Below, piece after piece: positions 14,644 to 61,194 of a stretch of DNA of 64,000 nucleotides. The DNA is taken from assembly GCA_026395055.1 (NCBI GenBank), contig JAPLZK010000004.1, forward strand, positions 82,805 through 146,804. The letters run 5' to 3'. The stretch's first letter is position 1; each line of letters begins with the position of its first letter. The translations under genes and the position numbers were made by a program. Source of the DNA: Candidatus Uhrbacteria bacterium (GTDB lineage: Bacteria > Patescibacteriota > Patescibacteriia > UBA9934 > GWF2-40-263). A model generated the notes under the pieces. It saw only the letters and a list, made by a program, of their open reading frames with translations, had not been told where the DNA came from and ran no database searches.

Positions 14644-14675
14644 AAATAAAAAATCGTCGAACGGGTTCGACGATT
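14644..14675 (-). terminator. rho-independent terminator for the minus-strand MFS gene
   Basis: Perfect palindrome AATCGTCGAAC-GG-GTTCGACGATT with a T-run on the minus strand. Confidence 0.7.
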
Positions 14676-39000: not shown

Positions 39001-39676
39001 AGAAGACTCTGGCGTTGTGGAGGGGTTAGGAAGCAAACATGTAAGTGTAACGTTCTACGTGAATGCCGACACAAACCAAATGCCATTACGTAATGTTGTG
39101 ATTGACTGGGGAGACGACATGCAAGGGGTGTCTGGTGGTGGAAATCCGTGGCCAAATGGAAGTGAGAGTGGTTCTACGGTGCCAAGCAACTTCTATAAAA
39201 ACCATCGTGGATTAAGCAAAACAAATCCGCCAAAGGAATTGTGTGACGGGTCCACATTTGGACAAGCGCCAGAAGCATGTAGTTCAAGTTACATTTTATT
39301 TACACACGATTACGTGTGTTCAAGTACAGATGTCGCTGCCTTGCAAAAAGCAGGTCGTACATGCGGAACGGTTGATCCAAAAACAAAGAGCATCATTACC
39401 TCACCATGTGTGACTGTTGATCCAAAAGGGGTTGCGTCATGTGAATTTCAACCTCGTATCCATGCAAAGGATAACTGGGGATGGTGTACTGGGTATTGCG
39501 ATGCCAATCCATCAGATGGAACAACGTCCTGTTTTGGAGGGGAGTGTGCGATTGATCTTTATCCATCAAGTGGTGTCAATTTACAAAATGCTCCGTTGGA
39601 TAAAAAGAGTTCCGGTAAAATTGTTAATCCATGGATATATTTTGAAGGTTCAATTAACATCATGCCGGTACAGTAA
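30011..39676 (+). CDS. giant (3221 aa) cysteine-rich extracellular/cell-surface protein with at least two CBM4_9-like carbohydrate-binding-type modules
   Basis: Single uninterrupted ORF. N-terminal signal/TM (LVFVFLIGIVSSGLILSG). Cys content is high throughout. An NGSFEKDEDKNGMPDNWANSN...VQLESGE block and a second NDTFENGATGSF...IDNVQLVQTEE block resemble CBM_4_9. Flanked by strong terminators. Confidence 0.7.
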   Translation: MMHSFKKKRQWIGRGLVFVFLIGIVSSGLILSGPTPVFAVDPAGVTQVVAGAAQGACPTTGAVPTVCPAKGVSETSKSLWDKIITPSLKMVAVKALIDFVSFASNRIAYEAAVYVANGGPGEGSMFYNKSASDAFLGFGKDMGGQAFADLSDITKSSFGLDLCVPPDPFIRLNLQLSIKQNYTPTKPRCDFDSVTTKWGQIVSDASSLLSNDKDARDKFLFNKLSEGLRPGNNQLGASIGFLQLTNETAQRNSQTKTAEQIGSIPIGGFTNVHDLVTGKTTTPAAIVSKQFDDQLKAAKGDQNQIKPADVLANPDVWYGLLNMSVSTFTNTLTSQLFNRVYKGLFSPKPDAADPFNTELAGGSGSDAEANKADLGGIFTATPVANPQYDLLGEFAQCPPDGTGNRSLNSCVIDAGVVAVISRGGSSAALTVQEAIDQKILNGDWPLISSKNASANQDRLCYTYGFCYGNLVKLRKARIIPIGWELAADKNSLNSPKSLKDIVAGFNDCNGQNQMDASHPWCHLIDPNWVLKAPESQCRAAVNGEIRVSDQAAGRQNVCADSPTCIGEDNTGKCTQGFGYCVEEKNIWRVKGDECPSQYATCLTMKNTTTGKANSLLLNTVDNANCTKQNAGCSWNKTIKTPDAKGVFQWYTGAAAYSVAATSSVFRYAGSNAPSYSYEDRLYVTHNAKQCDQAQAGCTELNVKDGKLALNLVQNGSFEKDEDKNGMPDNWANSNVNPVKFILDGNAVDGSKSVQANGGYFYQYVPVTSGSFYTFSFYASSAQVNQAVSVAIFPELANNNKISLVGLSYGGDCTLAPGNQNYDISKTLLSANEWKRFVCTFTLPETAVKVEIGLHDSNGGSPSIQYDAVQLESGEIASNFGDGYNIASPTKAYLKIAPAYLGCKGLASDPKECDAYAQVCSVQDVGCNLFTPKETGPAVPAIASALDACPNECVGYDSYRQEGTKYEPAKFPVYFIADKAGVCSANAVGCDGFTKLGAQGGETQEYYTNLRACLTPEMTTDKTTQTNPTSATYFTWEGSDKSGFQLRTWQLLQSNAAAGALVYTSTPSAFTASPSVGPAHTTETNPNLAPCTKVHVTANDAAACDDLAASHMATVAADASCDEHADIFTNPDCREFFDSTGLVHYRNYSDTVSVDAACVSYRKNTSTEPDCTASGGFWTSQGFCRYFGLQSESKACAASENGCREYTGGAGRNATTILNDTFENGATGSFASYAGTAAPSNDSVSSGGHSLHIIGGGVRTNQMYLGTTYDPAVATTCTNTPGATVVSGGCQLAPGCIVASGKASCGALVDSLARGKVYTLDVWAKGTGNLYAGFSDDGGLNAGNMHVHDLVNTSNHSTAIASLTPKALDPSWKVYHFGPINTTASEFSTFGPNSVLAFATDAGKEIFIDNVQLVQTEENIDRIKDSWVTPSVCDQSPDGAVSPQYYLGCKGYTDRKGVDGSYYQFSHICSEKAIGCSAYYNTYNADSASGQTTNARCVHGTAPNGTADPITEACIVNGTTYCTISAGQNYCVFSTKQVFADPLPSSGGFAIVYGPEAVVTPQDQSVYLVDNGNAQCSVEFKGCREVGAPTYAQDLKTVTKFTSQYIMDTPDDYGNILCENQALFCDEFASTKDGNFYFKDPINKTCEYKTSVTIAQKSFSGWFRSGTSEPCYWTDTNANKTFDPGVDSAYLVSGDQAQIWKNGDTSYDGWVGACDSSANRCTELIDSTDTSPENHGKGKSYYVINNDKLSENSVAVTEKCDGKVGQKAGCALFNNTTISQLKYSSSASYALSLHADLLLNKPQNSLVDPISCTQNGGVFKISLETAKKLADDDAKVSAAPHSASDVSVDLCSRRCHYELNKTGDTLVSPSANQPTAGVDWNERSCLYNSDCPVLDSKLEKGIKGTCRDTSLPLKDDSNTVLKVNRDRTCAAWLACDSARTTWDAGSNKYIQICDSVNLCTQTGSQGDQAQCASWTARTPVVMTEQLYASRDVSWAGVDYSGYEIPHQLPTERFSQFNLNPKKWCVDGNGNVGGNKNSCEKDSECAQGWTCGAAPLDYRIVYNAGPCTGSSSCQVGFCKNTKTACASNANCGTDVDATNFCVFGYCQAKGANCSKADNTECAGTATPICDTVQGVCVNHLVDHPSLTDACSSENACAGGQTCVAAATTAFGSCYQNRCLTDIRDTDGDGFSQPLDKDQADDSQSCRGYPEFDSPFPQKVVAQWKVPPFDPSAVNAVTGYQSVSGLSIIQLPSDLASPSQFVSGYNASKVCTPIKSKDVDGKDVWIANDNCICSYTKATYAKGAEDLYFPTDTSMLESGRVPEGICTGGLLAGRTCKTDKSCTIPEVKDGAGNVTTKEIPGTCQLLTSSNTMFGWQGYCLEKDSSIQLNGSTAAKDQACLTWLPVDQLSGATDLYGKETSAGYQVASNTYYCAQPGVAWNLQVSGVACAETDDGSCDDGGNSLLDDMNDDKPYLNAFCPKGYFAILGPCGSNDPGNDKDGNGYCNQHSGDDDYPYYCVPTHAYHADGITECKAPYTVGGSAGIPKPGGGLYFNLISDLASATKTIVGGGSGYFTSVSDFKAAVDYYKDCQVRGVIQSSTINTYFGDKTPGAVPSSDSGHDGSNSYYNLTMHDNSYAACKSVAQVGSTGSSGDLNAAWTDRVWQGKKPLYTISTGFNDNFAGYKLDAEPKIFGQAKDIVDISLDPAPDKILMCDNEMSLADTAGKCTDPKGVLSTPNEGRAFSKVSLVAQNGGVDSNWCSSKACTCNPSQGVADCNNFLQNVAHPCSFKSILCVGTWNCVNNKCDGGPSKGGACGDSSDCSLSACSDAAKSTACNKAGGKCQGTGTCSNTGGPTGTDKTQTTSCNSDFDCQVNKCVPNPNHSNGTGWDDANVCINKDSSYGAYTVSQDFSVTEAKNRLKQIFAEAYSLQTFDDVLNTKGKYKLAPANDPDVIGWKDQGVATGIWDSRATANGTHPPIITSLGSCIGTSCIEKTPGKFNVNGEDSGVVEGLGSKHVSVTFYVNADTNQMPLRNVVIDWGDDMQGVSGGGNPWPNGSESGSTVPSNFYKNHRGLSKTNPPKELCDGSTFGQAPEACSSSYILFTHDYVCSSTDVAALQKAGRTCGTVDPKTKSIITSPCVTVDPKGVASCEFQPRIHAKDNWGWCTGYCDANPSDGTTSCFGGECAIDLYPSSGVNLQNAPLDKKSSGKIVNPWIYFEGSINIMPVQ

Positions 39677-39757: not shown

Positions 39758-40537
39758 CTATTGTTTCGTAAGAATACCGTCTTGAGAATCGGTACCGTCT
39801 GTCGTGTGAATACTGATTTTCAGAAGATCGGGTTGGATAACACCACTTACTTTCAGACCAAGACTGGACATGCTGTCCGATTCGATGAGCTGATCGCCGG
39901 TAATATAGGCCAAGCCAGATTTTCCAACAGTCAAGACAATTTTGTCGTTCACAACATTCGTTGCGACGCTTTTTTTCTTATTATCAGATGAATCTTGATA
40001 TGTCCCATTCGGCGCCAATCCCCAAGATCCTACATCCGTCCACTCATGGGTGTACCCAGATGCAAACTGCTTGTCAGGGTTGCCTTTTGCGGTGAAGTTC
40101 CAGTCCACGAACAGGTGGTCGGGGCGCATGACGCGAACACCGAATGTGTTGCCGAATTTGATATTCGCCGCTGTCTGAACTTTGATGCTGTCTACATTTT
40201 TGAAGATGTAGGTCGGGTTTGTGGGAACGATAGAAGGATCTCCAAAGCTCGTACAAGACGAAACTTCATCGCATACATAGAAATCGGCGGGCTTTCCGTC
40301 TGGAGTCTTTGCGTTGATGGTGATGTAGCCCTCCGTGGAGGTGACTTTGACGTCTTCCCAACCACCTGACGAACCATCTGTCGACCCAGCATCACTGCCG
40401 TTGTCAGTCGACCCACCATCCGGCGAATACCCGTCCGTTTGGACGGTAGACGAATCGTGCGACCCGATGGGGTCGCTCGGGCATCCCGTGCACAAAAGGG
40501 CGAGCGGCGCGATCACGAGGATCTTGTGAAAGAACAT
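39758..40537 (-). CDS. secreted lipoprotein, unknown function
   Basis: Start is ATG 40537 with a GGAGAG SD. MFFHKILVIAPLALLCTGC is a signal peptide with a lipobox-like Cys, followed by a Ser/Gly/Asp-rich linker. The ORF is open further upstream to 40606. Confidence 0.5.
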   Translation of the reverse strand: MFFHKILVIAPLALLCTGCPSDPIGSHDSSTVQTDGYSPDGGSTDNGSDAGSTDGSSGGWEDVKVTSTEGYITINAKTPDGKPADFYVCDEVSSCTSFGDPSIVPTNPTYIFKNVDSIKVQTAANIKFGNTFGVRVMRPDHLFVDWNFTAKGNPDKQFASGYTHEWTDVGSWGLAPNGTYQDSSDNKKKSVATNVVNDKIVLTVGKSGLAYITGDQLIESDSMSSLGLKVSGVIQPDLLKISIHTTDGTDSQDGILTKQ

Positions 40538-40819
40538 GGGGCTCTCCTCATAATGGTCTCGCTGACGTGAGTCTGTGCGGGAACCGTTGGTGTTTGGGTC
40601 ATCCACCTTGGAATCACCTGCTTCTAGTATAGCAAATCTTGCTCCAGAAGACTCTCTATTAAGCCAGAAAAATGAGGATTTGTCAAGCGTCAGGGTTTTT
40701 TGACAGTTGAAAAATGGAAATTAAATATCCAGGCTTATTTAAGCGATTATTTAAGATTTTGAAATTGTTTATAAGAGCAAACAAAGTGCATTTTTTGGCT
40801 AAAATTAGGTATAAAATGC

Positions 40820-51242: not shown

Positions 51243-53000
51243 ATGTCGGAGGAAACACAAACCGTATTGCCAGACCGCGTCCTCGATTTCCTCAGTGATT
51301 TCGATGCGGTTAAGTTCGCGCAAGGGTTTGTGAAGACGTATGGATTGAAAGATGATGACGTGTCACGTGTTATGAACTTGGCAGAAGATGTTGTCTACGG
51401 TGAAGTCGCCGTAGACACGCTTCCTGCAGAGATGGTTTCTCGATTTAGTATCGACCAAACAAAATCCAAACAGGCCGCGCTTGAACTTGCAGAAGCTCGT
51501 TTGCTTCCTGTTCAAGAGGTTTTACCTGGCGTTGTACAGCAAATTCGTGCATGGGGTGGAGAGGTGGCGTTAAGTACAAAACCAGAAGCTGCGGCAATGA
51601 CGCCAGAGGTGTTTGTGCAAACATCCTTGCAGGATGTCATTAAGGAAATGCCTTCACATCTTCAGGGTCGCCTTGCGCACATTCTCGGACTTTACGTTTC
51701 AAAGCATTCCGACAAAGCTCTTGTCATGGATATGCTTACGCGATCTGAGAAAGTTGGTGGGGTTGAGTTTGGGGCAGAAGATGCGGAAGGGTTGTTATCG
51801 TTTGTGGATGAGAAGATGAAAGGAAAAAATATTGCGGTTGAACAGAGTGTTTTGGAAGAAAAGAAAATCGAAGCGCCAAAAAAGATCGAACTCATGGAAA
51901 CACCAAAAGTTGTTGTTGCTCCAAAGATTGTTGAGTCCGTTCCTGTTGTGAAAGAAGTTCCTGTAGCGATTGCGCCAAAAGATGTTCCCCCTGTTCGTAA
52001 TGAGGTAGAAGACGCACATGAAGTCGCGCAAGTTGCTTCTGCAAAGCAGACTGCCATGGAAACGCCTAAGCATGAACCCATGACCATTGAAGAAATGGTC
52101 GGACAGGTTTGCGCGCTCGAACCCATGAAGTTGCCAGACGGAACTCTTGTGGACAGATGCAAACAGATTGTTGAATCTCGATTACGAGAAGTACGTAATG
52201 CATCCGACACGCAAAAACAAATTGAACGTTCGATTGAAGCCGGTGGACTTGGTGTTTCTGGAAGAAAGTTGGCGGACATGATGCAAAGCATTGAGCACGC
52301 GTTTGATGCATTGCAACAACATGCATCCGAGAAAGTTGCACAGGAAAAATCTGTGTATCTTGAAAAGCAACAGTCACAAGAAATAGAAAAACAAACACTC
52401 GCGGAAAAAGAAGAAAAGATGATGACGAAGCGTTACGTTGAACTGACAGGGAAGATGCCAGACGCGCACGTATCACCCGCAGCACCTTCAAATGCGCGTG
52501 TAAGTGGATCTGTTTCAAAAGACGCAGCAATGGAACAACGTGCACAGAATATTGATACCGCGAAAGTTCGAAGTGTTATTGAGGCAACAAAAAAAGCAAA
52601 AGACCACCCCCAGCCCCTCCTTGTGAAGGAGGGGGGCTTGCAGCGGCCATCTGTTCAAGATGTGAAGTTTGTAAAGCGATTATCTGGGCCGATTGATGAA
52701 TTGCGTTCTGTGTCGCTTGTAGATTTTCGTCGTATGGCAAAGAGTCCGGGGCTTGCAACAGAAAAGATGATGAGTTTGGTTCAGTTGGTAGAAGATCAAG
52801 GATACGATAAACGTGTGGAGGCTATTCGCGCGTGGCAATCATCCCCACTTTATCAACAGTATCTCGCGATCGCGCGCAGTGCCATGCAAGAAGGAAAGCC
52901 TCTTGAAGACATGCGTGCACAACTCGCGAAACTCGGAGACACACTGACAAAAGAAGAGCTTGCGGCCATTTTACAATTGAACGGAGAGCTCAGATTCTGA
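51243..53000 (+). CDS. hypothetical soluble protein (585 aa) inside the T4SS-like cluster
   Basis: No TM helices and no recognisable motif. Acidic with coiled-coil-like segments. Tightly packed in the operon. Confidence 0.45.
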   Translation: MSEETQTVLPDRVLDFLSDFDAVKFAQGFVKTYGLKDDDVSRVMNLAEDVVYGEVAVDTLPAEMVSRFSIDQTKSKQAALELAEARLLPVQEVLPGVVQQIRAWGGEVALSTKPEAAAMTPEVFVQTSLQDVIKEMPSHLQGRLAHILGLYVSKHSDKALVMDMLTRSEKVGGVEFGAEDAEGLLSFVDEKMKGKNIAVEQSVLEEKKIEAPKKIELMETPKVVVAPKIVESVPVVKEVPVAIAPKDVPPVRNEVEDAHEVAQVASAKQTAMETPKHEPMTIEEMVGQVCALEPMKLPDGTLVDRCKQIVESRLREVRNASDTQKQIERSIEAGGLGVSGRKLADMMQSIEHAFDALQQHASEKVAQEKSVYLEKQQSQEIEKQTLAEKEEKMMTKRYVELTGKMPDAHVSPAAPSNARVSGSVSKDAAMEQRAQNIDTAKVRSVIEATKKAKDHPQPLLVKEGGLQRPSVQDVKFVKRLSGPIDELRSVSLVDFRRMAKSPGLATEKMMSLVQLVEDQGYDKRVEAIRAWQSSPLYQQYLAIARSAMQEGKPLEDMRAQLAKLGDTLTKEELAAILQLNGELRF

Positions 53001-53012
53001 TAGAATAAGCAT

Positions 53013-53444
53013 ATGCCAGAGCAATACGTGGTTCCACAATTTATTGATTCGGAAGATAAAATTTTCGGGCCGGTTACGGCACGACAGTTTATTATTTTGA
53101 TGGTAGTTGGACTCGTGGAATTTCTGTTGTTCAAATTATTATCGTTTGTTTTGTTTTTGGTGATTGGTGTGCCATTTTTGGCCATCGGAGGAATGATTGC
53201 ATTTACAAAGATCAATGGTCAGCCATTTCATTTTTTTATCTTGAACCTTGTTCAGACGATGAAGAAACCAAGACTACGTGTGTGGGATAAGACAGTAACA
53301 GATGCACAGTTACGCGATTACATCATCAAACCCCCACCTCTTGTCTTAACGCGTTTTGTTCATAAGGCATCCATTGGAACCTCTCGTATTGAAGAACTCA
53401 CGCTTGTGGTGAATACGGGGGGAGTTTATAAACCAGAAGAGTAA
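53013..53444 (+). CDS. PrgI/VirB3-like small two-TM protein
   Basis: N-terminal FIDSEDKIFGPVTARQFIILMVVGL followed by a second TM helix, the pattern seen in Gram-positive VirB3 analogues. Lies directly upstream of the VirB4 region. Confidence 0.45.
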   Translation: MPEQYVVPQFIDSEDKIFGPVTARQFIILMVVGLVEFLLFKLLSFVLFLVIGVPFLAIGGMIAFTKINGQPFHFFILNLVQTMKKPRLRVWDKTVTDAQLRDYIIKPPPLVLTRFVHKASIGTSRIEELTLVVNTGGVYKPEE

Positions 53445-53445
53445 A

Positions 53446-53530
53446 AAGGGACTAGGGACGAGGGATAAGGGGTTCGTGGCGAATTAGCTACGAACCCCTC
53501 GCCCCTAACCCCTCGCCCCTCCAGATCCTT
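53446..53530 (+). repeat. G-tract arm / C-tract arm inverted-repeat leader element (copy 2), ending at the ATG of the 53531 gene
   Basis: AAAGGGACTAGGGACGAGGGATAAGGGGTTCGTGGCGAATTAGCTACGAACCCCTCGCCCCTAACCCCTCGCCCCTCC. It has a 10-bp core stem (AGGGGTTCGT/ACGAACCCCT) with G-tract and C-tract extensions. Confidence 0.7.
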
Positions 53531-54217
53531 ATGCCTGAAATGCAATCTAAACAACTTGCGAAACCAAAACCTGGACCTGCAACCCAGCAGTATTTGGATA
53601 TCGCAGAAATTCGGGATGACATGGTTATTTTGAAAGACGGAACCGTTCGTTCGGTCTTGCTTGTGTCAAGCATTAATTTCGCGTTGAAATCTGGAGATGA
53701 ACAAGAAGCCATCATTCAGGGATACATGACGTTTTTGAACGGACTAGAATATCCTATTCAAATTGTGATTCAATCGCGCAAAATGAACATTGATGCGTAC
53801 ATGGGGCATTTGGCAGAGCAGCAAAAAAAGACCACGAACGACTTGTTGCGCGCACAGATCGTGGATTATCGCACGTTCGTGAATGAGCTCGTTGAACTTG
53901 GACAAATCATGCAGAAACGATTTTATCTTGTGCTTCCGTATGATCCTATTACAAACAAAGGAAAGAATTTCTTTGCACGCTTAGGAGACGCGTTGTCCCC
54001 AACAGCGGCCGCAAAGTTGAATCAAAAACAGATCGCGGATCGCATTGAGCAGCTCTCAAGACGTTCAGAACTCATTGCGGGAGAGTTAAGTAGCATGGGA
54101 CTTTCATCTGTCAGACTTGATACACAGGCACTGATCCAAATGTATTACGAGGTTTACAACCCAGATTTGTTTGACACAGAACGCATGGTAGATCTGAATC
54201 AGATTCTTCACGAATAA
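53531..54217 (+). CDS. T4SS-associated protein resembling the N-terminal domain of VirB4/TrbE-type ATPases (separate gene or 5' portion of a split virB4)
   Basis: YLDIAEIRDDMVILKDGTVRSVLLVSSINFALKSGDEQEAIIQGYMTFLNGLEYPIQIVIQS follows the pattern of VirB4 N-terminal regions. Its stop is 2 nt before the next ATG, in a different frame. Confidence 0.4.
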   Translation: MPEMQSKQLAKPKPGPATQQYLDIAEIRDDMVILKDGTVRSVLLVSSINFALKSGDEQEAIIQGYMTFLNGLEYPIQIVIQSRKMNIDAYMGHLAEQQKKTTNDLLRAQIVDYRTFVNELVELGQIMQKRFYLVLPYDPITNKGKNFFARLGDALSPTAAAKLNQKQIADRIEQLSRRSELIAGELSSMGLSSVRLDTQALIQMYYEVYNPDLFDTERMVDLNQILHE

Positions 54218-54219
54218 AT

Positions 54220-56319
54220 ATGGCAATTGATATTGGGCAAATTAAATTGAACACCCCATCTGCTCCGCCACCAAAACCGGTTGCGCAAAAAGCGGCAGAT
54301 GTTCAGCTCGCGTCAGAACGCACGGTTTTGGAAGAAGAGCGTATCTATCGCCGAGGTGTTGTGACGGTTCGGGATTTGATTTCTCCGGCCGCGTTTGAGG
54401 TTACCCCAAAATATTTGCGTCTGTCTGGACTTTATGTCCGTACACTTTTTATCGTGACGTATCCACGTCACATTGGTCTTGGGTGGTCAAGTCCGATTAT
54501 CAATCTCAACAAGACATTTGATGTTGCCATGTTTTTTTACCCGCTTAAAGCGGAAATCATTTTGAAGCAACTTCAAAAAAAGGTAGGTATTTTTCAAGCA
54601 AAAATTTTAGGAGATGCAGACAAAGGCGCGCCACGTGATCCTCTTGCAGAAACGGCCCTTCGAGACATTGAAGATTTGCGTGATGCGCTGACGCAGGGGA
54701 TTGAACACTTTTTTCAATTCGCGTTTTATCTCACCATCTACGGAAAAGACATGGATGAACTGGATAAATTTTCTCAACAAGTCGAATCACTTTTTGGAAG
54801 CAAGTTGATTTACTCCAAAAGTGGATTCTATCAAACAGAACAAGGATTCAATTCAACGATTCCACTCGGAAACGACGAGCTCATGATTACGTACAACATG
54901 AACACGTCGCCGATTGCGGCTTCATTTCCGTTCATCAGTTCTGATTTGACATCCGACAACGGAATTTTGTATGGCGTGAACCGTCACAACAACTCGCTGA
55001 TTATTTTTGATCGATTTAGTTTGCAAAACGCAAACTCGGTTGTGTTTGCCACGTCTGGTGCAGGAAAGTCTTACACCATCAAGCTCGAGATTTTGCGTTC
55101 CCTCATGATGGGGGTGGATGTGATTGTTATCGACCCTGAAATGGAATACAACCATTTGTCTGATGCGGTGGGTGGAACATACATCAATGTGTCGCTCGCA
55201 TCAGATGCAAAGGTGAATCCGTTCGATTTGCCGCGCGCTATTGGAGAGGGAACAAAAGTGGAAGACATTATTCGAAGCGCGGTTATTACCCTGAAAGGAT
55301 TATTGCGTCTCATGATTGGCGTTCCGATTGGGGAACAGGGAAAGCTTGGATTTACTCCAGAAGAAGATTCTATTCTAGACCGAGCGTTGATCGAAACATA
55401 TGCGAAGAAAGACATTACGCCAGATACAAAGTCTTTGGCAGATGTTGAAACTCCCGTGATGAACGACTTCAAAGATGTTTTGGATGGAATGGAAGGTGCA
55501 GAAAATATTGTGGCACGTTTGAAAAAATATACGGACGGAACATTCTCGGGATTGTTGAATTCACCAACCACGGTCGCCATGAACAACCAGTTTGTGGTTT
55601 TCTCCGTGCGTGATTTGGAAGACGAACTTCGAGCTGTTTCCATTTACTCGATCGTGAACTACATCTGGAACGTTGTGCGTTCAGAACGCAAGAAACGCAT
55701 TCTCGTTATCGATGAAGCTTGGTGGCTCATGCAACAAGAAGAATCCGCAAAGTTTATTTTCGCTCTCGTGAAGCGCGCACGTAAATATTTCTTGGGAGTG
55801 ACAACGATTACACAGGACGTTGCAGACTTCCTTGGTTCACCCTATGGTCAGGCAATTGTGACAAACTCGTCCATTCAATTGTTGATGAAGCAATCTCCGT
55901 CTGGAGTTGAACGTGTGGTAAATACATTTAACCTCACGGATGGCGAAAAATTCTTGTTGCTTGAGTCTGGAGTCGGAGAAGGAATTTTCTTTGCTGGGCA
56001 AAAACATGCGGCCATTAAAGTGGTTGCGTCTTATGCAGAAGATCAGATTGTGACCACAAACCCACAACAACTTCTTGAAATGGAAAAGGCTCGTAAAGCT
56101 ATTGAAGCACAGGTTGCTGTAGAAGAAGAACCTCCGGAAGCACCTGTCGAAGCTCCTGTTGCGGTAGAAGAAAAAGAATTGGCGGGAGATGTAGACGCTG
56201 CTGCAAAAACACGTGAAGAACAAAACCTTGCTGCGTCTGGTGCGGCGCAAGACTTACTTGCACAAGAAGCAACAGGGCAAGCAGAAGCAGATCGGATTCG
56301 AAATTCGTTAACGTCGTAA
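54220..56319 (+). CDS. VirB4/TrbE/PrgJ-like conjugative-type ATPase
   Basis: Walker A VVFATSGAGKSYT and Walker B RILVIDEAWWLM. A Gram-positive VirB4-like N-terminal block (YVRTLFIVTYPRHIGLGWSSPIIN). Acidic C-terminal tail. Confidence 0.7.
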   Translation: MAIDIGQIKLNTPSAPPPKPVAQKAADVQLASERTVLEEERIYRRGVVTVRDLISPAAFEVTPKYLRLSGLYVRTLFIVTYPRHIGLGWSSPIINLNKTFDVAMFFYPLKAEIILKQLQKKVGIFQAKILGDADKGAPRDPLAETALRDIEDLRDALTQGIEHFFQFAFYLTIYGKDMDELDKFSQQVESLFGSKLIYSKSGFYQTEQGFNSTIPLGNDELMITYNMNTSPIAASFPFISSDLTSDNGILYGVNRHNNSLIIFDRFSLQNANSVVFATSGAGKSYTIKLEILRSLMMGVDVIVIDPEMEYNHLSDAVGGTYINVSLASDAKVNPFDLPRAIGEGTKVEDIIRSAVITLKGLLRLMIGVPIGEQGKLGFTPEEDSILDRALIETYAKKDITPDTKSLADVETPVMNDFKDVLDGMEGAENIVARLKKYTDGTFSGLLNSPTTVAMNNQFVVFSVRDLEDELRAVSIYSIVNYIWNVVRSERKKRILVIDEAWWLMQQEESAKFIFALVKRARKYFLGVTTITQDVADFLGSPYGQAIVTNSSIQLLMKQSPSGVERVVNTFNLTDGEKFLLLESGVGEGIFFAGQKHAAIKVVASYAEDQIVTTNPQQLLEMEKARKAIEAQVAVEEEPPEAPVEAPVAVEEKELAGDVDAAAKTREEQNLAASGAAQDLLAQEATGQAEADRIRNSLTS

Positions 56320-56320
56320 T

Positions 56321-56890
56321 ATGATGAGTCCGAAACAACGTCGAAACACGATTGTGATCCTAAGCATTCTTTTGCTTTTGATTTTTCTTTGGTTGCTCTC
56401 GTTCTTGATTCCAAAATCAAAACCAAAAACAGAAGTGCCTGCTTCACAAACTTCCGCATCTACTCCGTCACAAACACCATTCACGACACAGCAATTAGAA
56501 CAAGAAAAAGTGGTGCGCACGCAAGCTTCTGGAATGACCACCACCGCAAAATTATTTGCGGAACGTTATGGAAGTTATTCAAATGAAGCAAACTTTCAAA
56601 ATATTCGTGACGTGATTCCACTCATGTCTGCAAAATTTGGTGCAGCAACAACAACAGCGCTTGCAACAAAAAAAGTGCCAATCGGATTTTACGGGATCAC
56701 CACACGTGTGATTACCGTGAAGGTTGTCTCACAAGATGAGAAAAAAGGAACAGCCGTGATCGACATGTCCACGCAGCGTGTAGAAGAAAACGGATCCGCA
56801 CAAAATACAACAACCAAGTATCAAGATATCGAACTTTCTTTTGTGAAAGAGTCTGGTGTATGGGTGGTGGATTCTGCAAAATGGTTATAG
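56321..56890 (+). CDS. membrane-anchored protein, VirB8/PrgL-like candidate (N-terminal TM plus a ~120-aa periplasmic domain)
   Basis: Single TM (IVILSILLLLIFLWLLSFLIP), then a Ser/Thr-rich linker and a small globular domain. Position is immediately after virB4. Assignment is by architecture only. Confidence 0.3.
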   Translation: MMSPKQRRNTIVILSILLLLIFLWLLSFLIPKSKPKTEVPASQTSASTPSQTPFTTQQLEQEKVVRTQASGMTTTAKLFAERYGSYSNEANFQNIRDVIPLMSAKFGAATTTALATKKVPIGFYGITTRVITVKVVSQDEKKGTAVIDMSTQRVEENGSAQNTTTKYQDIELSFVKESGVWVVDSAKWL

Positions 56891-57567
56891 ACGCATTGTT
56901 CCCAAGATTTTGTCTTTCGTGTAAACGCGAAGGGCAAATTTTTTGTTTAGACTGCGCATCGAATTGGATTGCAAGACCAGAACCGGTCGCGTGTCCGTTT
57001 TGTGGTATCCGAGGGTCAGCGCGAACATGTCTTCGTTGCCGAAAAGAGAATTATCTTGATGGACTCGTTTCGTATTTGCCATACGGAAACCCAATTGTTC
57101 GAGGGGTCATCGGGTATTGGAAATATGATGGGGATCGATCGGTTGAGCGAACACTGAAACAATGGATCGAACAATCACGCGGTCGACTTCGACCTGTTTT
57201 CGAAGAATTTGTTGTCACACACGTGCCAATCCATTCCTCGAGAAAGCGACTGCGAGGATTCGATCAGGCGGAGGTTTTGTCGAACTGGGTTGGTGAGATT
57301 TTCGATGCGCCTATCGAGATGTTACTCGTTCGATCGCGCAAAACAAAGCCGCAAGCAAAGACACATCATGATAAACGTCGTGTGGGATCCCTCGACGGGA
57401 TCTTTGAGATTCATCCGCAAGTCATTGAGCTTCCCGCACGCGTTTTGCTGTGCGACGACGTATTTACGAGCGGGGCAACCATGGATGCAGCTGCTAAATG
57501 CCTAAAAGACGCAGGGGTTGAAGAAGTATGGGGGTTTGTAATGGCAAAAGGATCTCATGAAGCTTGA
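56881..57567 (+). CDS. comFC: competence protein ComFC (phosphoribosyltransferase-type)
   Basis: N-terminal zinc-finger cysteines (CLSCKREGQIFCLDC ... CPFCG...CLRC). C-terminal PRTase motif VLLCDDVFTSGATMDAAAKCLKDAG. An upstream ATG at 56860 is an alternative start. Confidence 0.75.
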   Translation: MVIDALFPRFCLSCKREGQIFCLDCASNWIARPEPVACPFCGIRGSARTCLRCRKENYLDGLVSYLPYGNPIVRGVIGYWKYDGDRSVERTLKQWIEQSRGRLRPVFEEFVVTHVPIHSSRKRLRGFDQAEVLSNWVGEIFDAPIEMLLVRSRKTKPQAKTHHDKRRVGSLDGIFEIHPQVIELPARVLLCDDVFTSGATMDAAAKCLKDAGVEEVWGFVMAKGSHEA

Positions 57568-57608
57568 CATTTTCGCCAAAAACAGGTAGGTTTATCAGCC
57601 TTTGGACT

Positions 57609-57631
57609 ACCGGCGCAGTGCCGGTTTTTTG
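57609..57631 (+). terminator. rho-independent terminator after comFC
   Basis: ACCGGC-GCAGTG-CCGGT followed by TTTTTT. Confidence 0.75.
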
Positions 57632-57660
57632 AAGGGGTTTCCCCAAGGAGGGATAGGAAA

Positions 57661-58737
57661 ATGCTGAAGTTCCGTCAAAGCGTTTCGGTGGCCGTATTGG
57701 CTGCCTTTTTCCTGAGCACGACCGCGTGCCAGGAACGTGTTGTCTACACGTCGCCCGCCATGTCGGGTGGTGGTCAGACTGTTTCGGGGGCAGCTCCGGG
57801 CATCAGTCAGGAGCAGTTTGATCTGCAAGCCGCGATCGGTCTTCTGCGTACCAACAAGGTGCGTGATGCCGCGTCGCTCGAAGCGGTCATCAACGACCAG
57901 AGTTCTGGCATCAACAACATCGACCTCGATGGTGACGGCCAGATCGACTACATCGGCATTCAGGAATCGGTTTCCGGCAACGAGCGGCACATGGCTTTCA
58001 TGTCGTGTCCGTCCTCGAAGGTTGGCGAGCCGACCAAGATTGCGGACGTGACCATTCGCGACGACGGCCAACAAGTCTTCGTTGGTGGTGGGTACTCGAG
58101 CGTCTTTCAGGGTTATAACAGTTCGTACTATCAGTATTACGTCCCTCGGGCATCGTTTGGTGATGCGCTGTTCTTGGCCTGGATGCTGACGCCCTCGCGT
58201 CCGTATTATGCGTATCATCCGTACGGCTACGGTTGGGCCCCGCGTCGCGTTTACGCGCCGTCGGTTCTGACTTCCACGCGTACGTCGTCGACCATTACGC
58301 GCGAAGTGCGCATGGCTCCGGTCCAGAAGGCTGCTCCTCCGGCAAACTATGCCAAGGCCGCCGCGGTCAAGATGCCGCCGAGTCTCGCGAGCAAGCCGAC
58401 GGGACAGGGACTTTCCGGAACGGCCGGTCAGATGCGTGATTACAAGGTGAACAATAAGCCGGCTCAGGCTGGCACCGCGTTCGGTGCGACGAAGCCCGCG
58501 GCTCTGCCTGCGCCTTCCTCGCCCAAGCCCGCTTCGAGCGGTTGGGGAGGCGGTGGTTCTGCTGTGAAAGCTCCGTCGAGTGGCGGTGGCTGGGGTGGCG
58601 GTTCTTCCTCTGCGAAGCCTTCGGGTGGAAGCGGTTGGGGAGGTGGATCTTCTGCGTCGAAGCCCGCGAGCAGTGGCTGGGGTGGCGGCGGAAGTCGGAT
58701 GGGTGGCGGGTCTTCTGGCGGCGGTCGTCGGAAGTAA
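57661..58737 (+). CDS. lipoprotein with DxDxDG Ca-binding-like motif and C-terminal (S/A)SGWGGGxS repeats; lies in the high-GC island
   Basis: RBS AAGGAGGG. Signal peptide and lipobox MLKFRQSVSVAVLAAFFLSTTAC. Motif DLDGDGQIDYIG. Five repeats of xSGWGGGGS. Local GC is about 60% against about 45% for the background. Confidence 0.55.
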   Translation: MLKFRQSVSVAVLAAFFLSTTACQERVVYTSPAMSGGGQTVSGAAPGISQEQFDLQAAIGLLRTNKVRDAASLEAVINDQSSGINNIDLDGDGQIDYIGIQESVSGNERHMAFMSCPSSKVGEPTKIADVTIRDDGQQVFVGGGYSSVFQGYNSSYYQYYVPRASFGDALFLAWMLTPSRPYYAYHPYGYGWAPRRVYAPSVLTSTRTSSTITREVRMAPVQKAAPPANYAKAAAVKMPPSLASKPTGQGLSGTAGQMRDYKVNNKPAQAGTAFGATKPAALPAPSSPKPASSGWGGGGSAVKAPSSGGGWGGGSSSAKPSGGSGWGGGSSASKPASSGWGGGGSRMGGGSSGGGRRK

Positions 58738-58767
58738 TCAACCAACCAACACAAGGAGGAAGAGACC

Positions 58768-59931
58768 ATGAGTACACAGCTTGCGGCGCCCAGTGTGCAA
58801 AAGAAACGTCCGGATTGGCAGACGGAATCCATCTATCTGACGGTTCTGTACTTGCTTATCGAATGTCGGCAGAAGTTGCCGGTCATGTCGGACAATACAA
58901 CCGATGTCGGTTTCATCGAAAACGAACTCGGGGAAATGTACGCGAAGGGTCTCATCAAGATCAACGGCCCCTACTGGGAAGCGACGGACAAAAACGATCG
59001 CGACGTCAGTGGGAAGTTGGTTGGTGCGGCAAATGGCATTGCCTTCTTGGGTAAAGCGGTCGCCATGTGTGACCAGCTCATGAAGTTCGAGATTTTCGGC
59101 GGAGTTCGCCTGCAACAGGAGCTCAAGCCGCATGAACGTCTCGACGAAGATCCGTATCAGGTTCGTGATCACATCTGGGATCCGCGCTTCGTGGGTCCAA
59201 AGGAAGAAGATCCGGATGCGACCGATATGCGCATTGCGCAGATGATGTTCTTTTCGGAAATGATGTCGGATCAGATTGACGGCGTCGTCGATCCTCACCG
59301 CATCGTGTTTCTGCAAAAGCTCGCGTCGGGCCGACTCAAGGGGAAGGACTTCTGGTTCGACCTCAGGCTCGGTACGTTCTTCAAGGAAGTGGAAGCGATC
59401 GTCGCTTCTGCGTATGAGTGGCGTCAGATTGTTCCGGACGACGAGGCTCAGGCCATCGAAGTCATGAAGACCCTGTACGCCGCCGGCATGATCGAGAATC
59501 GCAAGCGCGCTCTCGACGCTGGCGAATGTTCCAACTGTCACATTCCGCTCGCGCTGTTCGAAGAAGAAGCCCGTAAAAACGGTGGTACGCTTCACGAGTG
59601 TCCGAATCCGGAATGCGGCGCAAGCTTTGATCCTCCGGCACCGCAAGGTTCGTCGGAAGCGTGTGCGTGCTGTGGCGAAGACATTTGGCCCGGCCAACGT
59701 CAGTGCTCTGGCTGCGGCGCAATCGTGGATCGTCGCTACACGCCCGGCAAGGTTGTGGAAACAGAACGTGTCACCACCTCGACGACCGTCGGCACGGTGT
59801 ATGATCCGTACTACGACACCTGGGGCTACGGCTACGGGTACTACGGTTATGCGCCGTACGGCTACTACGATCCCTGGAATCCGGTTGCCGACGTCGTCGC
59901 CTTCGGAATTCTCTGCGCAGTTCTTCTGTAG
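58768..59931 (+). CDS. hypothetical protein with zinc-ribbon-like CxxC pairs and Tyr/Gly-rich C-terminus plus C-terminal TM; lies in the high-GC island
   Basis: Strong RBS AAGGAGGAAGAG. CSNCH...CPNPEC...CACCGE...CSGCG. GYGYGYYGYAPYGYYDPWNP. Terminal hydrophobic segment VAFGILCAVLL. Confidence 0.5.
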   Translation: MSTQLAAPSVQKKRPDWQTESIYLTVLYLLIECRQKLPVMSDNTTDVGFIENELGEMYAKGLIKINGPYWEATDKNDRDVSGKLVGAANGIAFLGKAVAMCDQLMKFEIFGGVRLQQELKPHERLDEDPYQVRDHIWDPRFVGPKEEDPDATDMRIAQMMFFSEMMSDQIDGVVDPHRIVFLQKLASGRLKGKDFWFDLRLGTFFKEVEAIVASAYEWRQIVPDDEAQAIEVMKTLYAAGMIENRKRALDAGECSNCHIPLALFEEEARKNGGTLHECPNPECGASFDPPAPQGSSEACACCGEDIWPGQRQCSGCGAIVDRRYTPGKVVETERVTTSTTVGTVYDPYYDTWGYGYGYYGYAPYGYYDPWNPVADVVAFGILCAVLL

Positions 59932-59989
59932 GAACTCATTCTCGCGATCTCTCACAAAGAGGTCGTTTTTTTCTTTCTTGTTTCGAGAT

Positions 59990-60019
59990 ATTAAAAATCC
60001 CCACGCGAGCGAGGGGATT
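59990..60019 (-). terminator. rho-independent terminator for the minus-strand coiled-coil gene
   Basis: AATCCCC-TCGCTCGCGT-GGGGATT followed by TTTTTAAT on the minus strand; overlaps the stop codon. Confidence 0.65.
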
Positions 60020-60548
60020 AAATGGCGAATTTGAGGAATTTTTTATCTGCCGCTCGAATTCCTTGTATAATTTCGTGCTTAAGGTCTGCGAACTTGGCGT
60101 CGAATCTGTCTGTGAAGTGGAGAAGATCCGCTTTTGTGGCAAAACGATTCAGATCTTCTTTTGTGGCAAAACGATTTAAATCTGTGGCTATTTTTGTCTC
60201 AAGTTTTGCGATAGCCTGTTCCAATTCTATTTTTGTTGCGGCAGTTTCAATGATCCATTCGAATTTTTCTTCTGTTTCTGTTTTAAATTCGTGCATCTCA
60301 GATTTAAATTCGTTCATTTCTGATTTAAACTCATGCATCTCGGATTTAAACTCGTGCATTTCTTGGCGAAAGGATTTGTTTTCCGATTTGGATTCTGTGA
60401 GTTCTGTTTTAACGTATGCTAAAACTTCTAAAATTTTCTTGTTTGTTTCATCTATGTTATTTAATCGAACATCAATACCACCCAATCGTGTTTCTACGCG
60501 ATCAAAACGATGTTCGATATTTGATGTTTGATCAAGTTTGCTTGTCAT
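60018..60548 (-). CDS. coiled-coil protein with internal tandem repeats (4 x EMHEFKS-like, 2 x DLNRFATK)
   Basis: SFRQEMHEFKSEMHEFKSEMNEFKSEMHEFKTE, encoded by 21-nt tandem DNA repeats at about 60285-60370. No TM helices. Confidence 0.5.
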   Translation of the reverse strand: MTSKLDQTSNIEHRFDRVETRLGGIDVRLNNIDETNKKILEVLAYVKTELTESKSENKSFRQEMHEFKSEMHEFKSEMNEFKSEMHEFKTETEEKFEWIIETAATKIELEQAIAKLETKIATDLNRFATKEDLNRFATKADLLHFTDRFDAKFADLKHEIIQGIRAADKKFLKFAI

Positions 60549-60648: not shown

Positions 60649-61194
60649 TTAATGGTGATGATGAACAAAAGGTTCTGCGTTTGTTTTGTATGTCAGAGTT
60701 ACAATTCCATTCTCACGTTCTTGTTTCGAGATGAACTTCAGTTTCTCAAGAAAATTATCCTCCGCGAACACACGCTTTCCTTCGCCCACGAGAACAGGTT
60801 CGATATTTAAAATGATTTCGTTCACGAGACGTGTCTTGAGGAATGCTGTGTTCACCATCGAACCTCCGCACACAAATGCGTGATCAAATCCAGACTCGGC
60901 AAGAAAGTGCATGGCTTCGTCAGGGGAGGGGAGAACTACAAATTCAGGACCGACTTCCATGTTTACATCGCTCGAGAGAATGATTTTTGTGACACCGGCA
61001 ATATCCTGAAATCCAATCTCTTCATTCCAGCTTTTAATCGCCTCATACGTTTTTCTTCCAATGATCACATTGCCATATTCATGACAAAATCGAACATAAT
61101 CCGCCCAGTGTGCGTTTGAGATAAAGTCTTCCTCGCCATTTTCGCGCGCAATGAATCCGTTGACCGACATGGCCATGAAGAGGGTGGTGTGCAT
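60649..61194 (-). CDS. dihydrofolate-reductase-like (RibD C-terminal domain family) protein
   Basis: MAMSVNGFIARENGEED...HWADYVRF...IIGRKTYE...VCGGSMVNTAFL pattern. Ends in a natural HHHH. Confidence 0.6.
   Translation of the reverse strand: MHTTLFMAMSVNGFIARENGEEDFISNAHWADYVRFCHEYGNVIIGRKTYEAIKSWNEEIGFQDIAGVTKIILSSDVNMEVGPEFVVLPSPDEAMHFLAESGFDHAFVCGGSMVNTAFLKTRLVNEIILNIEPVLVGEGKRVFAEDNFLEKLKFISKQERENGIVTLTYKTNAEPFVHHHH

Follow-up and report, generated by a model that had tools for sequence, protein, structure and literature searches.

A GC-rich two-gene islet in Candidatus Uhrbacteria, probably acquired by horizontal transfer and encoding a predicted lipoprotein and a zinc-ribbon protein

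A two-gene islet in Candidatus Uhrbacteria was probably acquired horizontally from a GC-rich donor, and its two genes, here termed A and B, appear to encode a membrane-spanning pair of proteins. The islet lies at positions 57609-59940 of the window, the 64,000-nt stretch of DNA that was analysed as a whole. Its GC content is 58.4%, compared with 45.0% for the remainder of the window; the highest value among all 2332-nt windows is found at start 57601 (0.584), while non-overlapping windows of that length outside the island have a mean of 0.452 (sd 0.020) and a maximum of 0.505. The original prediction of a GC-rich island of about 2.3 kb is therefore borne out, and a 200-nt profile, which rises above 0.5 from 57600 and comes back down at about 59900, shows the step to be abrupt at both ends. 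The tetranucleotide L1 distance of the island to the rest is 0.533, where other 2.3-kb pieces give 0.227 ± 0.037 (maximum 0.339), a deviation of about 8 sd that makes it the most deviant 2.3 kb of the window. The GC content at third codon positions (GC3) of A and B is 0.66-0.67, where 0.40 is expected from their amino acids under the codon usage of the window (z 10.6-10.8). The compositional discontinuity proposed earlier is thus seen both in tetranucleotides and at synonymous sites, and horizontal acquisition from a high-GC donor, the first of the two causes suggested for it, is further supported by sites in relatives that lack the genes and by a homologous pair native to a 62% GC genome, as described below. 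Donor-like codon usage is confined to the two coding regions; the promoter-like site, the leader hairpin and terminator, the Shine-Dalgarno sites and the downstream terminator are all AT-rich.

The two open reading frames of the island, A (57661-58737, 358 aa) and B (58768-59931, 387 aa), are on the plus strand, and they occupy the gap between the convergent genes comFC and that for a RibD_C-type reductase. The upstream gene does encode a ComF-family protein, as first stated, and is the last gene of a conserved PrgI/TraC/VirB4-like operon. A promoter-like site read from the sequence at 57564-57592 (plus strand) comprises a -35 hexamer TTGACA (57564-57569), which overlaps the comFC stop codon TGA (57565-57567), a 17-nt spacer and a -10 hexamer TAGGTT (57587-57592). 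In the window and in loci L001, L002, L013 and L014 of relatives, the -35 hexamer is kept together with a TAnnTT hexamer at the 17-nt spacing; the site, which scored under the threshold of a generic promoter scan, may function as the promoter of the pair. The terminator scan placed a hairpin and T-run on the plus strand at 57609-57631 (hairpin 57609-57625); this terminator of the comFC operon presumably sits inside the 5' leader of the A-B transcript. All five cassette-bearing loci keep the hairpin, whose outer stem pair shows a compensatory change from C-G to T-A, and it is missing at the A-B-free sites L010 and L012, where different terminators are found. Ribosome-binding sites, also read from the sequence of the plus strand, lie 8 nt before the ATG of gene A (AAGGAGGG, 57645-57652) and of gene B (AAGGAGG, 58753-58759). 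The same scan found an intrinsic terminator downstream of B, GCGATCTC...GAGGTCGT followed by T7, at 59944-59973 on the plus strand (hairpin 59944-59966); it is kept in all five cassette loci, and complete sequence divergence beyond it marks the right end of the conserved insert. Of the terminators originally taken to bound the island, that on the left is real, but the hairpin named on the right (59990-60019) belongs to a convergent minus-strand gene (60018-60548), and the right boundary is instead set by the terminator of gene B. No further copy of the promoter and hairpin leader, sought as a repeated element, was found in the window or the loci. No credible direct or inverted repeats flank the island, and no integrase, transposase or adjacent tRNA gene was found at it, the nearest being a tRNA-Ser at 61287, past the conserved RibD_C gene. 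The island thus carries no mobility signature, and this lack of an integrase, transposase, direct repeat or adjacent tRNA to account for its insertion counts against the preferred explanation.

The order comFC / A-B / RibD_C recurs in five independent assemblies of related Uhrbacteria (L001, L002, L006, L013 and L014), which stem from separate projects, groups and assemblers (Logan, ENA, GenBank RIFOXY). The GC3 of the cassette is 0.54-0.65 in L001, L002, L013 and L014, against 0.25-0.47 in the flanking genes there; in L006 it is 0.57 for B and 0.47 for A, a less clear signal owing to a run of N across the A/B junction. Three other relatives have the site free of the pair: in L012 and in JGI contig 3300059473 the gap between comFC and RibD_C is only 62 bp and 28 bp, respectively, and in L010 other genes lie between them. 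The flanking genes of lineages that share the cassette differ by dS 1.2-2.2. The acquisition is old, neither recent nor strain-specific, and is common to a sub-clade of Uhrbacteria.

Outside Uhrbacteria the taxonomic check of both proteins led to a groundwater 'Deltaproteobacteria' MAG of 62% GC (GCA_016192705.1), in which A and B lie side by side. This pair is the closest found, and its GC3 of 0.74 is the same as that of its neighbour genes, so that it is compositionally native there. B is also carried by a 61% GC contig (L018, GC3 0.80), from a run numbered similarly to those of L001, L010 and L014. By neighbour joining, the B sequences of Uhrbacteria form a clade whose sister is the deltaproteobacterial one, within a wider and more diverse family. 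Because the nearest outside relatives are found in 61-62% GC DNA, acquisition from a GC-rich donor is indicated. A self-contained two-gene operon would have passed by horizontal transfer to the ancestor of a Candidatus Uhrbacteria sub-clade from a GC-rich bacterium, most like the groundwater 'Deltaproteobacteria' lineage, and would have landed in the permissive gap between convergent comFC and RibD_C-type reductase genes. No regulatory DNA is common to the island and the deltaproteobacterial locus, where the elements described above have no counterpart. Two further observations count against the preferred explanation: the identification of the donor relies on a pair 52% identical and on sparse sampling (B is present in only 4 of 185,579 species genomes); and in the tree the A protein of L013 does not group with the deltaproteobacterial A and those of the other Uhrbacteria, but lies outside them. 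A 2240-nt contig considered as a fusion of a window-like A to a deltaproteobacterial-like B proved to be a plain 61% GC contig.

The transfer event itself is an ordinary one, the gain of a small islet. In common with known genomic islets, A-B shows a sharp break in GC, codon usage and tetranucleotides, a fixed site, between conserved genes, that is occupied in some relatives and not in others, homologues of donor type elsewhere, and accessory surface-protein cargo. It differs from them in lacking an integrase, direct repeats and a junction tRNA, in being old (dS >1 between sharers) yet compositionally distinct, and in having a member of the CPR/Patescibacteria as its recipient. A search of the literature on Uhrbacteria and horizontal gene transfer found nothing relevant. 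The locus offers a clean, well-bounded case of CPR gene gain from a GC-rich neighbour, with A-B-free sites for comparison, and the fact that sequencing runs with similar numbers also contain the lineage of the candidate donor bears on the companions of these episymbionts. It is tempting to go further, and to see in A-B an undescribed two-protein module with two unmatched folds that travels between distant bacteria and large phages and that in Uhrbacteria became a fast-diverging, recombining surface locus derived from a co-occurring deltaproteobacterium; this extended reading is itself rather doubtful. If it were true, the GC-rich deltaproteobacterium could be the host of the episymbiont, and the island would then mark host-to-symbiont transfer.

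Gene A (NTX72_05295, plus strand; 57661-58737) is defined here from its open reading frame, homologues and invariant columns; the deposited record is truncated, at 248 aa. Its signal peptide and lipobox (57661-57729) end at Cys23, which is invariant in all ten A sequences, the lipoboxes of homologues reading L-[AVS]-[AG]-C; residues 1-27 form the sole strong hydrophobic peak, with a hydrophobic N-terminal helix at 2-20. On these predicted features A qualifies as a putative bacterial lipoprotein and substrate of signal peptidase II, and it is probably exported and held by its lipid to the outer side of the cytoplasmic membrane. The AlphaFold2 (AF2) model is folded over residues 50-176 and is otherwise disordered, with low confidence outside that range. 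Within the confidently modelled domain lies a DxDxDGxxD calcium-loop motif (57922-57948; D88, D90, D92, G93, D96), of which the four aspartates are invariant and the pLDDT is 82-86. The DxDxDG motif first described in the predicted lipoprotein is thus confirmed; of the five SGWGGGxS repeats, four are clear GWGGG units and the fifth is degenerate, and their number differs among homologues. These units belong to a basic Gly/Ser/Trp-rich disordered tail with a terminal RRK (58531-58734), residues 291-358 being 41% Gly and 26% Ser with a net charge of +7 and pLDDT <45. Overall A appears to combine an acidic, beta-rich domain, bearing a single calcium loop, with a long tail that is basic and disordered, rich first in Pro/Ala and then in Gly/Ser/Trp. 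An EF-hand, which calls for a 12-residue loop ending in Glu between two helices, was considered: the residues at loop positions 1, 3, 5, 6 and 9 agree with it, but position 12 holds Gly99 in place of Glu, a beta-strand comes after the loop, and Pfam gives no hit. The DxDxDGxxD type, as in the calcium sites of integrin/FG-GAP proteins, fits better.

Gene B (NTX72_05300, plus strand; 58768-59931) encodes an acidic protein identical to the deposited MCX6715199.1. From an alignment of 30 family members and an AF2 model (pLDDT 78.7, pTM 0.71), its architecture comprises a winged helix, a helical domain, a double zinc ribbon, a Tyr/Gly segment and a C-terminal hydrophobic helix. The ribbons (C254/C257/C278/C283 and C299/C302/C313/C316; 59527-59715) are formed by eight Cys in four pairs, whose columns are invariant or nearly so, and the earlier description of a CxxC-rich protein holds, as does that of its tail, WGYGYGYYGYAPYGYY. 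The ribbons may be of the consecutive four-Cys kind described by the Pfam models DZR (PF12773) and Zn_ribbon_3 (PF13248), which are matched below threshold by 12-14 of the 30 members (best E 6.8e-07) and not at all by the window protein. Ribbons of this kind and FG-GAP loops are generic building blocks; the A and B of the window reach no Pfam threshold and their surrounding domains match nothing known. The Tyr/Gly-rich segment (residues 351-371), which includes a conserved PYGYYDPW motif, and the hydrophobic helix (372-387) span 59818-59928; the helix is modelled at 372-386, and the Kyte-Doolittle value over 15 residues peaks there at 2.6 (residue 373). B would accordingly be cytoplasmic, very acidic, and held to the membrane by its C-terminal helix.

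Wherever a locus includes upstream DNA, L009, L015, L016 and L017 among them, A adjoins B or sits within 2 kb of it. Next to the membrane each protein has a Tyr-rich segment, YYAYHPYGYGW in A and the similar YYGYAPYGYYDPW in B. That the two genes strictly co-occur and are tightly spaced, and that these segments are alike, suggests that A and B form one membrane-spanning complex. Such a complex would probably serve the cell envelope, through surface interaction or the exclusion of phages or partners, rather than work as a DNA-binding regulator. A two-component phage spanin (Rz/Rz1) likewise pairs a lipoprotein with a membrane protein, but its lipoprotein is tiny and the other protein is anchored at the N-terminus and has a coiled coil in the periplasm, whereas A has 358 aa, B is almost wholly cytoplasmic with a C-terminal anchor and its bulk carries zinc ribbons, and no lysis genes are adjacent. 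The spanin and EF-hand readings, and the ToxR-like one considered below, were dropped on grounds of topology, charge and motif.

The gene pair is uncharacterised, in that no family, fold or function is assigned to it in the libraries searched. The A and B of the window found no match in Pfam, NCBIfam, PADLOC (no family at E ≤0.1) or PHROGs; a sequence-profile search of the PDB gave only generic zinc ribbons for B and nothing for A; Foldseek against the PDB and BFVD gave nothing below E 0.3 for either; and a domain scan of distant B relatives gave a lone weak match to MC4 (E 0.005). The B family comprises only about 80 clusters (E ≤1e-30) out of 1.84 billion representatives, and the pair is hosted by bacteria of 30-64% GC and by phage-like contigs; the two cargo genes are strictly paired and scattered widely.

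Such contigs raise the question of whether A-B is cargo delivered by phage, a 'moron' serving as an envelope module, for example in superinfection exclusion; such a route does not conflict with the origin proposed above, and we regard it as unlikely. Like the Rz/Rz1 spanins and the T5 Llp or Cor-type lipoproteins, A-B would be a set of mobile accessory envelope genes that includes a lipoprotein, with the difference that it has no homology to these modules. The pair does occur in an IMG/VR viral contig (L017), beside genes for RNA ligase, polynucleotide kinase, an HNH endonuclease and phosphoesterases, and in contigs of 355 kb and 424 kb with short co-directional open reading frames and phage-type genes (L015, L016). 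These viral-context copies are, however, the most distant, at 31-44% identity; prophage genes flank the island in no Uhrbacteria locus examined; and nothing was found in PHROGs or, by tblastn with B and an A homologue, in 50,697 GenBank phage records. A tblastn search of 72,556 plasmids with B was likewise without a match.

The pair is under purifying selection (dN/dS 0.12-0.14; about 0.12 for gene A against L001), and it has continued to move among Uhrbacteria lineages. Window B differs from that of L001 by dS 0.48 and matches it at 91-95% of nucleotides between 58761 and 59060, against dS 1.35-1.7 for the flanks; in L014, A is 79-84% identical and B merely 57-60%. For P0033 (a window-like A) and for P0003 (an L013-like B) alike the longest record is a 4834-nt Logan contig, and from this equal size the two probably share a single contig. 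Continued exchange is thus visible in mosaic A/B combinations and in a stretch of B far closer than the flanks. The high GC3 of the island, at near-saturation of flanking synonymous sites, is unexpected under a single old acquisition followed by simple amelioration, and this too counts against the preferred explanation; on the doubtful extended reading above, its persistence would reflect ongoing exchange or GC-biased conversion and not recent arrival. A pair that stays GC-rich through deep divergence while being shuffled thus offers a natural test of amelioration against recombination-driven maintenance of GC.

The same observations could be turned to support a local origin, in which the pair is old in Uhrbacteria or came from a source that was not GC-rich, frequent recombination between lineages at the locus with GC-biased gene conversion sustains the GC3, and the deltaproteobacterial copies are recipients or cousins. 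Mosaic alleles, a recently exchanged stretch of B, GC3 persisting past dS >1, and family members in 30-45% GC genomes all speak for it. We nonetheless judge it improbable: the pair is missing at the site in more distant Uhrbacteria, the B sequences of Uhrbacteria fall into a single derived clade that is sister to 61-62% GC sequences, and neither the recombining flanks nor neighbouring variable genes are enriched in GC.

Hardly more improbable is that B is a membrane-tethered transcription regulator with A as its lipoprotein co-sensor. ToxR-ToxS and VtrA-VtrC likewise are specified by two adjacent co-transcribed genes, for a cytoplasmic winged-helix protein on one membrane helix and an extracytoplasmic partner. 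A winged helix is predicted at residues 16-72 of B, with weak HTH_45 matches in 10 of the 30 members; one member is named 'predicted transcriptional regulator' by JGI; and VtrC is among the weak fold matches of A. The charge, however, contradicts a basic recognition surface: the winged helix, which is not of the OmpR type, carries a net negative charge in every one of the 30 members (-1 to -9), as does the cytoplasmic part as a whole (-8 to -39). Moreover B has two zinc ribbons and ends at its hydrophobic helix, where the regulators have a periplasmic domain to bind the barrel of the partner; A is a predicted lipoprotein with a basic disordered tail; and the Foldseek matches are non-significant (E >2 for B, 0.8-1.3 for VtrC).

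That A and B are native genes, their GC raised only by a composition rich in Gly, Ala, Pro, Arg and Trp or by expression-linked codon bias, is very improbable. Amino-acid bias does make a partial contribution, in gene A only, which has a GC of 0.614, a GC2 of 0.59 and a GC3 of 0.660, and whose amino-acid content alone predicts 52.5% GC where 61.6% is observed in that comparison. Gene B, however, has a GC3 of 0.668 despite a background-like GC2 of 0.412, and each gene stands at z of about 10.7 above its amino-acid-conditioned expectation, an excess at synonymous sites that amino-acid bias does not explain. Likely highly expressed genes have low GC3 (NusA 0.29, GroEL 0.39), so that expression-linked bias would push the opposite way, and closely related genomes lack A-B at the site.

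Lastly, a chimeric assembly, in which the Uhrbacteria contig wrongly took in a fragment from some GC-rich organism, could account for the abrupt GC step at both ends and for GC-rich relatives in similarly numbered sequencing runs, but this other cause first suggested for the discontinuity is refuted by identical junctions in the five other assemblies of different groups and assemblers, by the divergence of island and flanks in step (for example A 77-81% and comFC 72-80%), by the conservation of host-type regulatory sequence at the junctions, and by the record of the exact B protein of the window in a Logan assembly too, and can be set aside with near certainty.

The GC-rich island predicted at 57609-59940 was borne out by both sliding GC and tetranucleotide statistics. 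The segment is 58.4% GC, against 45.0% in the remainder of the window; among all windows of 2332 nt the GC maximum (0.584) belongs to the one starting at 57601, whereas non-overlapping windows of this size elsewhere have a mean of 0.452 (sd 0.020) and a ceiling of 0.505. The tetranucleotide distance between the island and the rest is 0.533, compared with 0.227 ± 0.037 (maximum 0.339) for equal-sized pieces, and a 200-nt GC profile rises abruptly at 57600 and falls again at about 59900. The two genes expected there are both present as open reading frames, with the motifs named for them conserved in homologues: a lipoprotein gene, A (NTX72_05295; 57661-58737, plus strand), and a zinc-ribbon protein gene, B (NTX72_05300; 58768-59931, plus strand), on a 339-kb contig of a Candidatus Uhrbacteria MAG. 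The gene directly upstream does encode a ComF-family protein (comFC).

GC content by codon position allows amino-acid bias to be separated from foreign codon usage in each gene. Gene A is high at all three positions (0.59, 0.59 and 0.66), while in gene B GC2 is an ordinary 0.41 and the excess is due to a GC3 of 0.67; background genes in the window have GC3 values of 0.29-0.57. When each protein was re-encoded 1000 times with the window's own codon frequencies, a GC3 of 0.40 ± 0.025 was expected against the observed 0.66-0.67 (z = 10.6 for A and 10.8 for B). The alternative that amino-acid bias alone accounts for the island fails for B, whose GC2 is background-like, and holds in part for A, where it still falls short: amino-acid content alone gives 52.5% GC for A against 61.6% observed, and 47.0% for B against 56.3%. 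There is a wholesale switch of codons from window to island, GGA falling from 0.49 to 0.11 and CCA from 0.45 to 0.02 as GGC rises from 0.12 to 0.41, CCG from 0.25 to 0.60 and TCG from 0.16 to 0.43. The low GC3 of NusA (0.29) and GroEL (0.39) in the window shows that expression-linked bias does not run towards GC. The codon usage of A and B is foreign.

Three other genes of the window, all on the minus strand, also exceed the amino-acid-conditioned expectation (GC3 0.50-0.57; z 6.5-7.7) and may be older or weaker foreign acquisitions: those for a 1074-aa protein with seven MopE-type copper motifs and FG-GAP repeats (3218-6442), an MFS transporter (14674-16050) and a 282-aa protein without a Pfam match (39758-40606). 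The opposite compositional outlier of the window is a single 3221-aa ORF at 30011-39676, with an unusually low GC3 of 0.30 (z = -12).

A mis-joined contig, the other origin considered in the original prediction, is excluded because the junctions of comFC, the A-B pair and RibD_C, a convergent minus-strand reductase-type gene on the far side of B, recur identically in five independent assemblies. These are Logan SRR22387963 (L001), ENA ERZ27254807 (L002), GenBank MGFD01000030 from Uhrbacteria RIFOXYB2_FULL_45_11 (L006), ENA ERZ909572 from groundwater (L013) and Logan SRR22388219 (L014), in all of which the order is VirB4/TraG-like ATPase, 189-aa gene, comFC, A, B and then RibD_C on the opposite strand; identity is 56-88% for the B homologues and 50-81% for the A homologues. 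GC3 of the pair is 0.54-0.65 against 0.25-0.47 in flanking genes in L001, L002, L013 and L014; in L006, where a run of Ns spans the A/B junction, B alone stands out clearly (0.57, against 0.47 for A). That run, at about 7830-8000 of the 2016 scaffold, falls exactly on the Gly/Ser/Trp repeat tail of A and the start of B, which suggests that the GC-rich repeat region is hard to assemble.

The pair occupies a fixed insertion site between comFC and RibD_C, and alleles free of it exist. Without A-B, only 62 bp separate the two flanking genes in the Uhrbacteria locus L012 and 28 bp in a JGI contig, and in a further locus, L010, a coiled-coil gene and an M15 peptidase occupy the site instead. The ATPase of L010 is 88% identical to that of the window, as close as that of cassette-bearing L001, so presence or absence of the pair varies among fairly close relatives. 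Between B and RibD_C there is, depending on the locus, nothing, a coiled-coil gene or a 221-aa gene, and this variable content marks the convergent gap as an insertion hot spot. L001 and L010 align to about 25 nt beyond the comFC stop codon and diverge thereafter, and the cassette loci all match through the T-run of B's terminator and diverge thereafter, which places the conserved insert at about 57590-59973. The terminator named for the right boundary needs correction: the hairpin at 59990-60019 belongs to the convergent gene on the minus strand (60018-60548), and B has its own terminator at 59944-59966, followed by a T7 run.

The operon ending at this site (51243-57567) encodes a 585-aa protein, a PrgI-like protein, a protein with a TraC-like N-terminus, the VirB4/TraG-like ATPase, the 189-aa membrane protein and ComFC. 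Its products form an apparatus for DNA uptake or one resembling type IV secretion, and the insertion hot spot lies at the operon's 3' end. The gene order, from the ATPase or PrgI-like gene through ComFC, is kept in related Uhrbacteria loci as far as the contigs reach. On the other side, the gene at 60018-60548 (35.8% GC) encodes a 176-aa coiled-coil protein and has internal tandem repeats (21 nt x 4 and 27 nt x 2); copies 39-51% identical occur in L010, L013 and L014, and it is absent in L002, L006 and L012. An exact 15-nt direct repeat, TTCTTGTTTCGAGAT, brackets it in the window (59975-59989 and 60718-60732), the second copy lying within the RibD_C reading frame. The RibD_C/DHFR-like protein itself (60649-61194, minus strand) ends in a natural histidine run, ...EPFVHHHH, kept in all seven Uhrbacteria loci examined.

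Strong Shine-Dalgarno sites lie 8 nt 5' of both A (358 aa) and B (387 aa) on the same strand. The comFC-A spacer is conserved in cassette loci, with a TTGACA overlapping the comFC stop codon, a 17-nt spacer and a TAnnTT hexamer, and then a hairpin and T-run in which the outer stem pair shows a compensatory C-G / T-A change. Neither these elements nor the terminator of B has a counterpart around the adjacent A-B pair of a deltaproteobacterial MAG (GCA_016192705.1), which is preceded by a tRNA gene and a 600-bp GC-rich spacer; the coding regions of the two genes therefore make up the donor-like, GC-rich part, and the control elements appear to have been made in the host. At 57564-57631 the promoter-like site stands directly 5' of the terminator hairpin, an arrangement kept in five loci, and RNA begun there would reach the terminator after about 10 nt; attenuation, 5' stabilisation or expression by read-through only are candidate roles. 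The deposited annotation apparently starts A at Met111 (248 aa, not 358; region 57661-57990), so that the conserved lipobox and signal peptide are missing, and cuts comFC to 163 aa (region 56860-57080); homologue alignments favour the longer forms of both.

With each of 185,579 species represented by one genome, only four carried B: two uncultured Gammaproteobacteria, an Uhrbacteria and a 'Deltaproteobacteria' (NC_groundwater_736, 62% GC). The deltaproteobacterial A and B adjoin (HYY84_16470 and HYY84_16475) and match the genes around them in GC3 (0.74). A 61% GC contig (L018) from run SRR22387924, whose accession number is close to those of the L001, L010 and L014 runs, includes the end of A together with a B whose GC3 is 0.80 and which is a close relative of the deltaproteobacterial one. 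In a neighbour-joining tree the Uhrbacteria B proteins form one clade, sister to a deltaproteobacterial clade that includes the B of L018, and both are nested within a larger, more diverse family. Together these findings fit a putative transfer into Uhrbacteria from a GC-rich lineage of deltaproteobacterial type. Acquisition from a high-GC donor, as first proposed, is thus upheld by codon usage, by sites free of A-B and by a GC-rich sister lineage; the event is an ordinary one, the gain of a small islet by horizontal transfer.

Between the window and the cassette-bearing genomes, flanking genes show dS values of 1.2-2.2, near saturation, so these genomes represent deep lineages. Purifying selection acts on both A and B (dN/dS about 0.12-0.14 against L001), and their divergence is out of step with that of the flanks. 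A of L014 is 79-84% identical to the window and L002 types, with B at only 57-60%; A of L013 is 50-55% identical to all others, the deltaproteobacterial A being closer at 60-63%. P0033, an A of the window's type, and P0003, a B resembling that of L013, each have a 4834-nt Logan contig as the longest on record, and from this equal length probably share one contig. Between the window and L001, dS for B is 0.48, and over 58761-59060 nucleotide identity is 91-95%, exceeding the 77-88% of the highly conserved ATPase gene. The discordant divergence of A and B and this highly similar stretch indicate that lineages have exchanged the locus, with breakpoints falling between the two genes. It is mildly puzzling that the GC signature has lasted, GC3 being still 0.54-0.67 despite deep divergence; recombination during later spread, gene conversion biased towards GC, or selection could each explain it.

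A has a signal peptide and a lipobox with an invariant Cys23. Its residues 50-176 (pLDDT 70-86; acidic, net -8) are modelled as two short helices, a loop in which DxDxDGxxD is invariant, five strands and a helix; residues 179-358 are predicted to be disordered and are basic (+20), running from Tyr/Pro-rich through Ala/Pro-rich sequence to Gly/Ser/Trp units with a terminal RRK. For B, strongly acidic and without a signal peptide, the model (pLDDT 78.7, pTM 0.71) places a winged helix at residues 16-72 and a long helix at 90-111; these are followed by an extended segment in which D-P-R-F is invariant, a bundle of helices (155-246) and two four-Cys zinc ribbons (254-316). A disordered Thr/Val linker then leads into a Tyr/Gly segment, and the C-terminal helix (372-386) is hydrophobic. 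The winged-helix region is net negative in 30 of 30 members, which argues against DNA binding despite weak HTH_45 matches and one 'predicted transcriptional regulator' label. Profile searching of 1.84 billion representatives yielded 308 B relatives, 82 of them at E up to 1e-30; distant ones retain the first 230 residues and an aromatic C-terminus of YYDPFY type, and lack both the zinc ribbons and any Pfam domain. Neither A nor B matched Pfam, NCBIfam, PADLOC or PHROGs, Foldseek of both models against PDB and BFVD gave nothing below E = 0.3, and PDB sequence profiles returned generic zinc ribbons only. The readings as an EF-hand (for A), a ToxR-like regulator and a spanin were rejected on grounds of motif, charge and topology. 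What the islet carries is an uncharacterised pair of genes with a widely scattered distribution.

Pairing is strict: in every locus whose sequence extends upstream of B, a homologue of A adjoins B or sits 2 kb upstream. Pairs occur in six Uhrbacteria loci, the deltaproteobacterial MAG, a gammaproteobacterial locus (L009, 45% GC), L016 (30% GC), L015 (39% GC) and an IMG/VR contig (L017), where the neighbours are an RNA ligase, a polynucleotide kinase, an HNH endonuclease, phosphoesterases and a clamp-loader-like ATPase. L015 and L016 lie on contigs of 355 and 424 kb made up of short co-directional ORFs, including an RNA ligase, SNF2 helicase, dCMP deaminase, chaperonins and HNH endonuclease, and these contigs resemble the genomes of large phages. 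No homologue was found among GenBank phages or PLSDB plasmids. The predicted topologies of the two proteins are complementary: A would lie on the outer side of the membrane and B, tail-anchored, on the inner side, and they may touch through similar Tyr-rich segments beside hydrophobic helices. These segments also show as a DNA repeat (58203-58230 and 59838-59865). Such a module would act at the envelope. The likeliest role, proposed with low confidence, would be in interaction with phages or partner cells, as suggested by fast mosaic evolution, surface exposure and phage carriage.

Elsewhere in related Uhrbacteria, a Band_7 (SPFH) gene at 7234-9123 of L002 has 57% GC and a GC3 of 0.63 in a 45% GC contig. 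The JGI contig without A-B holds a Band_7 gene of the same length (629 aa), and in both contigs a YqiJ_N-domain gene precedes it.
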